Shown piece by piece: positions 4,162 through 5,456 of a stretch of DNA of 64,000 nt. Numbering within the stretch: position 1 is the first letter of the stretch; every line of letters starts with the position of its first letter. Below the pieces are notes generated by a model. It worked only from the letters and a program-made list of their open reading frames with translations. It did not search any database and was not told where the DNA came from. The stretch covers positions 732,562 through 796,561 of the forward strand of contig OY970216.1 of assembly GCA_963713955.1 (NCBI GenBank), given 5' to 3'. The DNA is from an uncultured bacterium (lineage in GTDB: Bacteria > Patescibacteriota > Minisyncoccia > UBA6257 > GWB1-50-10). A program made the translations under genes and the position numbers.

Positions 4162-4764
4162 CTATTGCAAAATCACCTTTCCTAAAATGTCAGACTGACC
4201 GACCAAGCCGAAGTGGGTGGAATCAAGCGAGCCACCGATCTCATCGCCCAAAATCAGGTAAGCATCTTTTGGTATGACCGGGTAACTTTGAGTATAAAGA
4301 GGGAGCATTTTGTTCGTGTCGGGTATCTGGTATTCTTTCCCTTCGCTATTCCTCAAGACCCGACTGTTAACCAAGATCAAGAAGTACCCGTTTTTGTTTT
4401 CGAGCGACCAGTGATCGCCGGGCACGGCCTGGACCATTTTAACCAAAGGATTCGGGTCACCGGCATAGCGATAGAGCACTATATCACCGCGCTCAATCGA
4501 GCGGCAGGCATAGTAACCGAGAAGAACTTTGACTGTTTCTCCTGGCTTGACAAGCGGCGTCATTGACGTTCCCTCCACGGTTCTTTCTTCAGTTTGGACG
4601 GGGCACGAAGATGAGGTGGTAGCGCTACCGTTGGTGCTTATAACCCCGAGTGGATGTTCAAGCGAGTGACCAGAACCAAACGGTTTGAAGATCAAATAAC
4701 CAATGAAAGCGAGCTCAAGTAAAACAACAATGATGAAGAAAATAAATAAGGTTCTGCTGGACAT
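4162..4764 (-). CDS. lepB: signal peptidase I (S26 family)
   Basis: N-terminal TM, catalytic-Ser box GTSMTPL, RGDIV motif, and C-terminal GDEIGGSLDSTHFGLV box. TATAAT lies 8 nt upstream of the ATG. Confidence 0.8.
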   Translation of the reverse strand: MSSRTLFIFFIIVVLLELAFIGYLIFKPFGSGHSLEHPLGVISTNGSATTSSSCPVQTEERTVEGTSMTPLVKPGETVKVLLGYYACRSIERGDIVLYRYAGDPNPLVKMVQAVPGDHWSLENKNGYFLILVNSRVLRNSEGKEYQIPDTNKMLPLYTQSYPVIPKDAYLILGDEIGGSLDSTHFGLVGQSDILGKVILQ

Positions 4765-4910
4765 TAAGATGATTATAACTAAAGGGCGTTAGCCATAGGA
4801 TGGGGAAAAATCGGGGGGTTACTGCGCTCTAACGGCAAATATATTGGAGGAAAACCACACAAAAACCCTTGGGGTTTAGGCGAGCTGCCGCTTTAAAATC
4901 TGACAGAAAA

Positions 4911-5456
4911 TCATTCCACACACATGGCGCACGGCCCATCCACCGTGTACAACACAAAGCCATCGCTGCTCAATGATCCAGTAGGCCCGTTCCCTGGATA
5001 GCACTCTGCATAATAGCCCTGGTAGCTGGATCCACCAGTTATCGTAAAATACACGTAAGTCATCTTGCCAGAATACTCCGTTATGTAGGGTGACGGGCAC
5101 GTAGACGTCCCCAGGGCGGTGTATGTCCACTGCATACCTGCGAGTGCGTCCACATACGCTTTTGTCGCGGCGTCAGTGGTCATTATCGGGGTAGCCAGAC
5201 CAGTTATCGTGCCAGTTGCCATAGTAATCGTCCCATTGACGGTCAGAGTTGACGACGGGCTCACTGTCCCGATCCCAACCTTGCCGCCACTGTAGTAAAT
5301 GCCCGTTGATGTCGTTGTCCATTGAGAAGAAGTTATAGTCGGATTTCCATTCGGGGGAGTTTGGGTGGGATTGGCGAAAACAATACCGGCGACGCTGACG
5401 ACCAAAGCTATGGAAAGGATCGCTATGGCAAGAATGTATGGGGTTTTGGAATTCAT
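4911..5456 (-). CDS. secreted or membrane-anchored hypothetical protein with 'VGIGT...DAATKAYVD' tail-fibre-like motif
   Basis: N-terminal TM/signal. The motif KVGIGTVSPSSTLTVNGTIT...TGLATPIMTTDAATKAYVD is shared with 43019-44200, 44968-46275 and 48404-49174. Confidence 0.55.
   Translation of the reverse strand: MNSKTPYILAIAILSIALVVSVAGIVFANPTQTPPNGNPTITSSQWTTTSTGIYYSGGKVGIGTVSPSSTLTVNGTITMATGTITGLATPIMTTDAATKAYVDALAGMQWTYTALGTSTCPSPYITEYSGKMTYVYFTITGGSSYQGYYAECYPGNGPTGSLSSDGFVLYTVDGPCAMCVE

Follow-up and report, generated by a model that had tools for sequence, protein, structure and literature searches.

We analyzed a 64-kb stretch of DNA (hereafter, the window) from an uncultured bacterium of the Patescibacteriota (contig OY970216.1, positions 732,562 to 796,561), in which two genes for S26-family signal peptidases each lie among genes for secreted proteins that resemble phage tail fibers. 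Coordinates of open reading frames (ORFs) follow the numbering of the window and are collected in Table 1. The two peptidases and four putative fiber partners had been named in an initial annotation; all six ORFs exist, all on the minus strand, and each peptidase gene is flanked by secreted-protein genes as described there. In the first module, the same-strand gene order is PilB, PilC, pseudopilin, a 181-aa protein (fiber 1), and S26 paralog 1, which comes last. Pfam matches to PilB, PilC, and the pseudopilin bear out the earlier statement that this first pair directly follows type IV pilus genes. In the second module, the minus-strand order is a 256-aa secreted protein, a 485-aa membrane protein, a cupredoxin-like protein, a 435-aa glycine-rich protein, S26 paralog 2, a 393-aa glycine-rich protein, and a Y1 transposase homolog.

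Both peptidases scored above the curated cut-offs of Peptidase_S26 (PF10502; 70 bits for paralog 1 and 56 bits for paralog 2, cut-off 22.9) and of TIGR02227, which represents bacterial signal peptidase I (SPase I) among the NCBIfam equivalogs (78 and 65 bits, cut-off 47). Aligned with each other, the two proteins show 38% identity (E=8e-43). Paralog 1 carries Ser67 within a GTSMTP motif, together with Lys109 and a Cys54/Cys87 pair, and paralog 2 keeps the same catalytic serine, lysine, and cysteine pair, so the assignment of both genes to the S26 peptidases was correct. In a 15-sequence alignment (A2), C54, S67, C87, K109, D117, D181, and S182 are invariant, and the motifs expected of the S26A class are present and align to the catalytic motifs of Staphylococcus aureus SpsB: box B (G-x-S-M/L), box D (K-x-x-x-x-P-G-D), and box E (G-D/N…S-x-D-S). 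Neither enzyme reached the cut-off of TIGR02228, the model for the SipW/endoplasmic reticulum (ER)/archaeal type known as S26B (23 and 19 bits, cut-off 51.85). Because the lysine is conserved, where a Ser-His pair would be expected for S26B, we assign both enzymes to the Ser-Lys type; judged by sequence, they are bacterial S26A (SpsB-like) signal peptidases, not of the SipW/ER type. The arrangement also recalls TraF-TrbC (IncP pilin maturation) and SodX-SodN, in which an S26-family enzyme is dedicated to a neighboring substrate, but the window enzymes fall below the cut-offs of the conjugative TraF models (TIGR02771, NF010459, and NF010412; 17-28 bits against cut-offs of 100-186) and of the model for SodX, the maturation protease of nickel superoxide dismutase (Ni-SOD; 31 bits, cut-off 63). 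We found no type IV secretion or conjugation genes in the window and no Ni-SOD genes near the S26 genes.

An AlphaFold2 (AF2) model of paralog 1, with a predicted local distance difference test score (pLDDT) of 84.9, places a disordered linker (30-51) between an N-terminal transmembrane helix (aa 3-25) and a beta-rich domain, so that the protein is predicted to combine an N-terminal membrane anchor with the S26 fold. The closest solved structure by sequence is SpsB (E=1.2e-19), and Foldseek matched the model to SpsB (E=2e-8, 31-33% identity), Streptococcus pyogenes SipA, and Escherichia coli LepB. Homology and the cysteine pair suggest that the catalytic domain lies outside the membrane.

The initial annotation held that all four neighboring secreted proteins share one long motif. 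A six-frame search of the window confined the full motif (VGIGT..P...L.V.G … DAATKAYVD) to fiber 1 and the 393-aa protein, with the VGIGT half encoded at 5265-5279 and 43790-43804 and the DAATKAYVD half at 5148-5174 and 43673-43699; across all six frames, the exact nine-residue string DAATKAYVD occurs in these two ORFs only. The 435-aa and 256-aa proteins contain just the first half, 'RVGVGTASPGQKLSVAG' and 'SVGIGVTPTYTLDVSG', respectively, which restricts the claim to two of the four proteins. The description of the motif as tail-fiber-like held up better. The DAATKAYVD half aligns with a solved phage 'tail fiber gp9' (PDB 23sh_r: ITDLANPTNSQDAATKAYVDAA), with which it has in common I-x-x-L-A-x-P-x(4)-DAATKAYVD, and the two glycine-rich proteins match phrog_863 'tail fiber assembly' (E=4.9e-20 for the 435-aa protein and 4.6e-16 for the 393-aa protein). 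Among the other families that had been proposed for searching, Gly_rich_2 (PF21722) is matched by the 393-aa protein (39.6 bits, cut-off 24.3), and Peptidase_S74 (PF13884) has no match at E<=0.1 in the four window fiber proteins. The 435-aa protein has no Pfam match, yet it is homologous to the 393-aa protein. Fiber 1 matches a hidden Markov model (HMM) of the motif (E=4.6e-15) and no Pfam family; a word-index homolog search with it returned fiber 1 itself as the sole match, and its AF2 model, built from a 4-sequence alignment, was unusable (pLDDT 42.5).

We predicted signal-peptide cleavage sites with a rule-based script that evaluates n-, h-, and c-regions and the -3/-1 rule. Nearly all partner proteins, in the window and at the related loci described below, are predicted to have a basic n-region, a hydrophobic core of 18-21 residues, and a site that conforms to the -3/-1 rule. 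The window proteins all have N-terminal signal peptides with canonical sites (cleavage marked by an arrow): VFA↓NPTQTPPNGN in fiber 1, VLA↓FSGPSQSPPNG in the 256-aa protein, SSA↓SQ in the 393-aa protein, and GYA↓SQ in the 435-aa protein. The predicted mature N-terminus of fiber 1 is N29 (NPTQTPPNGNPT…). At other loci from the Candidate Phyla Radiation (CPR), predicted sites include VFA↓WTGPTANPP, VMA↓WTSPPGNPP, and VSA↓WTAPTGTPP, and in CPR fibers the mature N-terminus is itself conserved as [FW][TS]xP[TS]xxPPxGN. Given these site predictions on the neighboring proteins, the window S26 enzymes may cleave after A-x-A.

The C-terminal tips of the fibers vary. Some are glycine-rich, others are cysteine-rich and about 130 aa long (L005, L013, and L034; L numbers denote the loci that we compared), and others are smaller cysteine-rich tips that end in C..CVK, CCK, or CIKN. 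The tip of fiber 1 is homologous to that of the L001 fiber (8887-9927), which ends in CAMCVK. The L005 fiber shares 62% identity with the 393-aa protein as far as the final residue of DAATKAYVD and has no homology to it beyond that residue; because homology stops exactly there, the motif marks where one tip is exchanged for another. The cysteine-rich tips have no Pfam or PDB sequence match apart from one faint match to DUF1554 (E=0.29), and a likeness to C-type-lectin, endostatin-like, or DUF1554-DUF1566 tips found no support in Pfam or PDB sequence searches. After the motif comes a hinge, A[AQL]xGGG. A GG pair lies within 8 residues of the motif in 11/20 fibers that are paired with an S26 gene, compared to 8/101 unpaired ones, and the median number of residues after the motif is 115 in paired fibers and 405 in unpaired fibers. 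By these sequence features, S26-paired fibers are a distinct architectural subset.

Word-index searches identified 7 relatives of one window peptidase and 10 of the other. Among close relatives with usable flanking sequence, a fiber-type gene lies immediately upstream of the peptidase gene at all six loci. At L001 and L002 (S26 64% identical), it encodes a 346-aa protein that contains …TGLNAPVNASDSATKAYVD… and ends in CAMCVK; at L005, it encodes a 326-aa protein with the full motif; and at L008, L009, and L011, which are relatives of paralog 2, it encodes a glycine-rich VGIGT protein. The nearest relatives of paralog 2 (P0009, P0011, and P0015) are all directly downstream of such glycine-rich proteins. 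We then counted adjacency over 43 non-redundant peptidase ORFs, 24 of which have >=900 nt of sequence on both sides. Our script flagged 20 of these 24, and we added L008 and L028, where the fiber ORF overlaps an over-extended call of the peptidase ORF, so that all informative loci but two, L024 and L027, have an adjacent fiber-type gene (22 of 24). The adjacent fiber genes are mostly on the same strand and directly upstream, with a spacing that ranges from a small overlap to a gap of ~190 nt, and the paired loci span CPR bacteria, Omnitrophota, Elusimicrobia, Desulfobacterota, and DPANN archaea. When we ran an HMM of the DAATK motif against the 1315 ORFs of the S26 loci, matches at E<1e-3 were confined to the fiber genes at the peptidase; one match farther away (L018 223-1110, ~1.4 kb from the peptidase) is a second fiber gene in tandem upstream. 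The pairing therefore exceeds chance, and it is conserved in both related and distant genomes. The initial annotation had named two findings that would speak against its proposal, motif proteins without cleavable signal peptides and a pairing not kept in related genomes; neither was borne out. In addition, peptidases of the paralog 1 clade accompany fibers with the DAATK motif and cysteine-containing tips, and those of the paralog 2 clade accompany glycine-rich fibers. This correspondence between clade and fiber type fits inheritance of peptidase and fiber as a unit.

The association is weak in the reverse direction. We scanned metagenome contigs for relatives of DAATKAYV with a 7-sequence motif alignment and kept the best 80 loci; the S26 subfamily is present in 2 of these 80 (L064 and L053). 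Most other DAATKAYV proteins from metagenomes look like phage tail fibers, that is, they are long and have no signal peptide. Another group consists of Bacteroidota-like secreted proteins, of which the one scanned (L054) has a Fib_succ_major domain. Because few DAATKAYV loci carry an S26 gene, the motif alone does not predict the peptidase.

These phage-like relatives, along with the matches to a solved tail fiber and to phrog_863, raise the question of whether the region is a remnant of a phage or tailocin, in which case the fibers would be viral rather than cellular. Phage tail fibers do resemble the window fibers in the DAATKAYVD motif, in a conserved proximal part, and in swappable distal tips, but they have no signal peptide, whereas all four window fibers have a predicted one, and they are much longer after the motif. 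The similarity is at the level of the motif only, no phage structural genes surround either module, and a search of 2.9 million viral contigs returned zero members of the S26 subfamily. The neighbors are pilus and housekeeping genes, and the GC content of both modules equals the window average. Overall, we consider a viral origin of the region highly improbable. On the same measure of GC content, we rejected recent horizontal acquisition of the modules.

To size the S26 subfamily, we ran a profile exhaustively against 1.84 billion cluster representatives. This gave 443 clusters at E<=1e-30; relaxing the threshold raised the number to 1445 (E<=1e-10) and 15,070 (E<=1e-3). Among 152 representatives, the catalytic serine is kept in 149 and the catalytic lysine in 150, and the two cysteines of the hallmark pair in 139 and 143. 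The residue after the catalytic lysine is mostly isoleucine or valine, and arginine, which is usual at this position in SPase I, occurs in 10 of the 152. The linker between the transmembrane helix and the serine is long, of low complexity, and variable, and the position of the serine varies widely across the subfamily. The window enzymes are thus like SpsB and the general SPases of Gram-positive bacteria in their Ser-Lys dyad and single N-terminal anchor, but their subfamily differs in its cysteine pair, in the isoleucine or valine in place of arginine, in its long disordered linker, and in being rare, patchy, and tied to one class of neighbor.

Scanning 185,579 species, each represented by a single genome, with the peptidase alignment and one narrow peptide pattern, we located 36 further S26 loci. 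By the labels of their metagenome-assembled genomes (MAGs), these belong to Saccharibacteria, Paceibacterota, Wolfebacteria, Portnoybacteria, Harrisonbacteria, Omnitrophota, Elusimicrobia, Desulfosudis, Gammaproteobacteria, Myxococcota, Planctomycetia, and Spirochaetia among bacteria, and to Altiarchaeota, Woesearchaeota, Aenigmatarchaeota, and other archaea. One label is questionable: in L064 1219-8141 (≈L018, from a Planctomycetia bin), T2SSE and T2SSF genes and pilins that look archaeal by eye (KKAQAAMEFL…, NKAQASMEYL…) lie upstream of the fiber and S26 genes, and the contig is probably a mis-binned member of the DPANN. In L036, from an archaeal MAG, direct repeats of 141 nt that are 96% identical (556-696 and 5478-5618) bracket a 4.9-kb segment that bears the S26 gene and may mark a mobile insertion. 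The archaeal contig L040 has a second, short S26-family gene (PF10502, 27 bits), which we read by eye as archaeal in type.

Two signal peptidase genes beside secreted proteins could also be ordinary housekeeping enzymes that happen to lie next to abundant substrates and have no special specificity. Both enzymes do exceed the cut-off of the SPase I equivalog, their fold is closest to that of a general SPase, the signal peptides of the fibers are canonical, and the window has no other S26 gene. At L023, L027, L029, and L015/L016, the S26 gene lies in what appears by eye to be a housekeeping neighborhood. Adjacency to one class of protein at 22 of 24 loci, across phyla and domains, is not expected of a housekeeping enzyme, nor is the tracking of fiber type by the two paralog clades. 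With 443 clusters, and 36 loci in the scan of 185,579 species genomes, the subfamily is also far too rare to be the general SPase of the CPR, and the lineages in which it occurs include Omnitrophota, Desulfobacterota, Myxococcota, and archaea, all of which should encode SPases of their own. Because the subfamily is small and patchy, because it is present in these lineages, and because L040 encodes a second S26 enzyme on the same contig, we infer that it is an accessory paralog rather than the general signal peptidase of the CPR. A housekeeping role for the two window genes is thus unlikely in our judgment.

Considering the data together, we read the window as holding two copies of a conserved module in which one or two secreted, tail-fiber-like proteins are accompanied by a dedicated membrane-anchored S26A peptidase that would mature attachment or recognition fibers. 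We place the probability of this interpretation at slightly above one half (roughly 0.55). It builds on the assignment of both peptidases and the integrity of their catalytic residues, on conserved adjacency, on signal peptides predicted by rule, on the modular tips, and on the rarity and patchiness of the subfamily. In the mechanism that we propose, Sec would export the fiber proteins, and the long hydrophobic signal peptide would keep each fiber tethered while it folds, probably as a trimer, around a conserved stalk with DAATKAYVD at its end. Each fiber would then display a small C-terminal tip, either glycine-rich or cysteine-rich, that can be exchanged. Finally, the adjacent S26 enzyme would remove the signal peptide at A-x-A (VFA↓NPTQ, VLA↓FSGP, SSA↓SQ, GYA↓SQ), thereby freeing the mature N-terminus. 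The products would most likely act as attachment or recognition fibers of an ultra-small, host-dependent cell, alongside its type IV pili.

The proposed dedicated module has precedents in SipW-TasA/TapA of Bacillus subtilis and sipW-bsaABC of Clostridium perfringens, where a dedicated type I signal peptidase is encoded in one cluster with the secreted, fiber-forming surface proteins that are its putative substrates. Secretion of BsaC needs type IV pilus proteins (PMC11580942). The initial annotation drew the comparison with SipW-TasA, which holds as an analogy only and does not extend to enzyme class: SipW is of the ER/archaeal S26B type, whereas the window enzymes are of the bacterial S26A Ser-Lys type. 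The substrates differ as well, given that subunits with the TasA/camelysin fold polymerize by strand exchange and the window substrates appear tail-fiber-like with exchangeable tips. Conceptually, the window fibers seem closer to the mosaic adhesive trimer (MAT) fibers of Bdellovibrio, which combine a signal peptide and a conserved N-terminal domain with variable tips and are carried by a bacterium that attacks other bacteria (PMC10769870). In-cis maturation by S74 is given for 13/21 MAT fibers, and the passages of that paper located by term search make no mention of an S26 partner. Many phage and MAT fibers mature through an in-cis S74 domain, which has no match in the window fibers.

Several observations weigh against the dedicated-module reading. 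The partners in L015 and L016 are prepilins with the signal GFSL[AI]ELL (N_methyl by Pfam in L016 and by eye in L015), and the partner in L047 bears a lipobox (LIAC) rather than a Sec signal; whatever S26 cuts at these loci cannot be a type I signal peptide, and its removal is therefore not a common denominator of all pairs. At L064, one motif protein has, by eye, an archaeal-type pilin signal. Given that the predicted cleavage sites are canonical, any SPase I could cut the fibers, and the long linker (30-51), disordered in the model, would be unusual for an enzyme that is needed at the membrane surface. The pairing itself also has gaps: CPR-type fibers at L068 and L074 have no S26 gene in the available flank, the S26 gene of L023 lies beside rpsL-rpsG-fusA-tuf and that of L027 beside apparent proline-biosynthesis genes, in each case with no fiber gene (both neighborhoods by eye, with no family search), and the S26 genes of L015 and L016 are divergent from an apparent lepA (by eye). 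Cognate processing of the fibers by the S26 paralogs, as first proposed, may apply to most pairs, with the partners in L015, L016, and L047 speaking against it.

Since the motif, hinge, and tip are all that nearly all partners have in common, whether they carry a Sec signal, a prepilin signal, or a lipobox, the S26 enzyme might be a factor that serves fiber maturation or assembly without acting on the signal peptide, either by cutting the Ala/Gly hinge A[AQL]xGGG or as a chaperone in the manner of SipA. The distinctive hinge and short tips of paired fibers would fit such a role, as would their lack of an S74 domain, and the long flexible linker predicted for the enzyme would let it reach sites off the membrane. 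S. pyogenes SipA/LepA, a pilus assembly factor, is like the window enzymes in that an S26 fold is encoded in a gene cluster for surface fibers (TM-score 0.74-0.76 on target). SipA has lost its catalytic residues and serves pili assembled by sortase, whereas the serine and lysine of the window subfamily are essentially invariant and the modules are without sortase or LPXTG. In addition, the DAATK motif is absent from several partners (the 435-aa window protein, L008, L009, and L011), the tips, which differ between relatives, resemble functional heads more than disposable chaperones, and the hinge may be a mere flexible linker. Considering both sides, we find such a factor quite unlikely. Distinctly doubtful, too, is a bolder version in which the S26 enzyme is, in function, no signal peptidase but a Ser-Lys protease that matures adhesins derived from tail fibers in trans, replacing the in-cis S74 of phage fibers, by cutting the hinge or licensing assembly, and in which the pair is a horizontally mobile host-recognition cassette of ultra-small CPR, Omnitrophota, and DPANN episymbionts that has frequently been inserted at type IV pilus loci.

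About a third of loci have type IV pilus genes nearby; within 10 kb of the module, such genes are present in 7 loci (the window, L001, L015, L016, L039, L042, and L064, of which L064 is an archaeal-type pilus locus with T2SSE, T2SSF, and archaeal-type pilins). Proteins with 'AWxxN[IV]GWIxF' repeats also directly flank the module at CPR loci, in the window (the pseudopilin) and in L032 (7857-8423), L042 (7043-8365), L045 (10645-11892), and L068 (6557-8125). The repeat region belongs to no Pfam family, and in the window copy it is joined to a pilin N-terminus. The fibers might thus be carried as cargo by the type IV pilus machinery or form part of its tip, with export across the wall in a manner like type II secretion and with the S26 enzyme as part of the pathway; the fusion of the motif to pilin N-termini in L015, L016, and L064 and the requirement for pilus proteins in C. 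perfringens are consistent with this. Most loci, by contrast, show no pilus genes in the available flank, the second module of the window is not next to pilus genes, and some proximity is expected by chance given that CPR genomes carry many pilus loci. We regard this role as possible but somewhat unlikely; display that depends on pili is compatible with the dedicated module and does not exclude it. The window also contains paralogous type IV pilin genes (10019-11415, 20123-20776, and 23687-24904) that have repeat families in common at 62-90% DNA identity, and one ORF among them (10019-10732) has two N-methylation motifs in a single reading frame.

Table 1. Genes of the two peptidase/fiber modules and their neighbors in the 64-kb window
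Feature	Coordinates	Strand	Description
S26 peptidase paralog 1	4162-4764	-	200 aa; PF10502, TIGR02227
Fiber protein 1	4911-5456	-	181 aa; predicted signal peptide, full motif, ALAG hinge, 78-aa Cys-containing tip ending CAMCVE
Pseudopilin	5503-7002	-	N_methyl PF07963; class III signal FTLIELL; three 'AWNDN[IV]GW[ILV]xF' repeats; directly upstream of fiber 1
PilC platform protein	7002-8207	-	T2SSF PF00482, E=1.3e-49
PilB assembly ATPase	8231-9949	-	T2SSE PF00437, E=1.1e-119
IS200-like Y1 transposase homolog	42169-42933	-	PF01797, E=7.4e-9; flanks second module
Glycine-rich fiber protein	43019-44200	-	393 aa; full motif, Gly_rich_2 tip PF21722; directly downstream of paralog 2
S26 peptidase paralog 2	44304-44900	-	198 aa; PF10502, TIGR02227; GNSLSG
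Glycine-rich fiber protein	44968-46275	-	435 aa; VGVGT half-motif only; directly upstream of paralog 2
Membrane-anchored cupredoxin-like protein	46321-46893	-	PF13473, E=6.6e-11
Membrane protein, function unknown	46932-48389	-	485 aa; no family match; C-terminus kept in L005 367-645, gene order same
Secreted protein	48404-49174	-	256 aa; predicted signal peptide, VGIG half-motif only; first gene of second cluster

Other neighbors of the second module recur as well. Orthologs of the cupredoxin-like gene occupy the same position in L001, L005, L008, and L031, and Y1_Tnp adjoins the S26 gene in L001-L004; the Y1 transposase homologs that adjoin the module in the window and in L001 (10607-11308) have a long C-terminal extension. 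At L024, a reverse transcriptase (RT; PF00078) with motifs of the type found in diversity-generating retroelements (PIGNLTSQ, YVDDFVLL) lies beside the S26 gene (757-2058, minus strand), and RT fragments are present in L023 (20-454, minus strand) and L029 (47-610), with no adjacent fiber gene in the sequence at hand. We found no pairs of template and variable repeats (TR/VR) in the window or in any S26 locus, and a lone A/T-biased match in L032 proved to be two paralogous genes. We therefore rejected the idea that the fibers are targets of such a retroelement.

Fiber 1 and S26 paralog 1 are separated by an intergenic gap of 146 nt (4765-4910). By eye, this gap contains a hairpin with a T-run straight after the stop codon of the fiber gene and a TATAAT sequence 8 nt before the ATG of paralog 1, which suggests that paralog 1 is transcribed separately from fiber 1, possibly as a leaderless mRNA. 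Because of these elements, we do not assert a single operon for the two genes. Promoter and terminator scans gave counts no higher than in shuffled sequence.

In the remainder of the window, the 5' part of a 23S rRNA gene (1-1560) and a 16S rRNA gene (13279-14699) lie on the same strand, 11.7 kb apart. Between them are the pilus genes, the first fiber/S26 pair, a gene that looks by eye like a protein-isoaspartate methyltransferase, tRNA-Thr, and tRNA-Trp. The 1560-nt 23S stretch covers model positions 1-1225 only, with ~335 nt extra, and the 16S gene is 1421 nt long compared to a model of 1533 positions. Just 3' of the 16S gene, a 142-aa ORF on the minus strand (12531-12959) contains a LAGLIDADG-like motif (…GLIDGEGSF…) and may encode a homing endonuclease tied to the rRNA region. 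At 3638-3778, ARAGORN gives overlapping tRNA-Arg(gcg) and tRNA-Thr(tgt) genes, and Rfam backs one tRNA at 3707-3778. A 47-nt direct repeat (2641-2687 and 26838-26884) is 89% identical between copies 24 kb apart, one of which is near tRNA-Trp. The GC content of 56000-62000 is 0.40-0.44, compared to ~0.50 elsewhere; by eye, with no family search, this region holds a cluster resembling glycosyltransferase and polysaccharide-synthesis genes, and it may be a horizontally acquired island. PADLOC defense-system models returned no matches.

In the literature searched, we found no description of an S26/tail-fiber-like pair in the CPR or related episymbionts; coverage was incomplete, and an earlier description is possible. 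Beyond type IV pili, little is known of how ultra-small, host-dependent bacteria and archaea recognize their hosts and attach to them (PMC11623550). The module can be defined by sequence search, through a distinctive S26A subfamily and un-annotated tail-fiber-like fibers with swappable tips. If our interpretation is true, the idea of a dedicated peptidase with its own fiber substrates would extend from the SipW type of Firmicutes and archaea to a clade of bacterial Ser-Lys enzymes. The module makes a concrete candidate for what determines attachment and host range in CPR bacteria, Omnitrophota, Elusimicrobia, and DPANN archaea.

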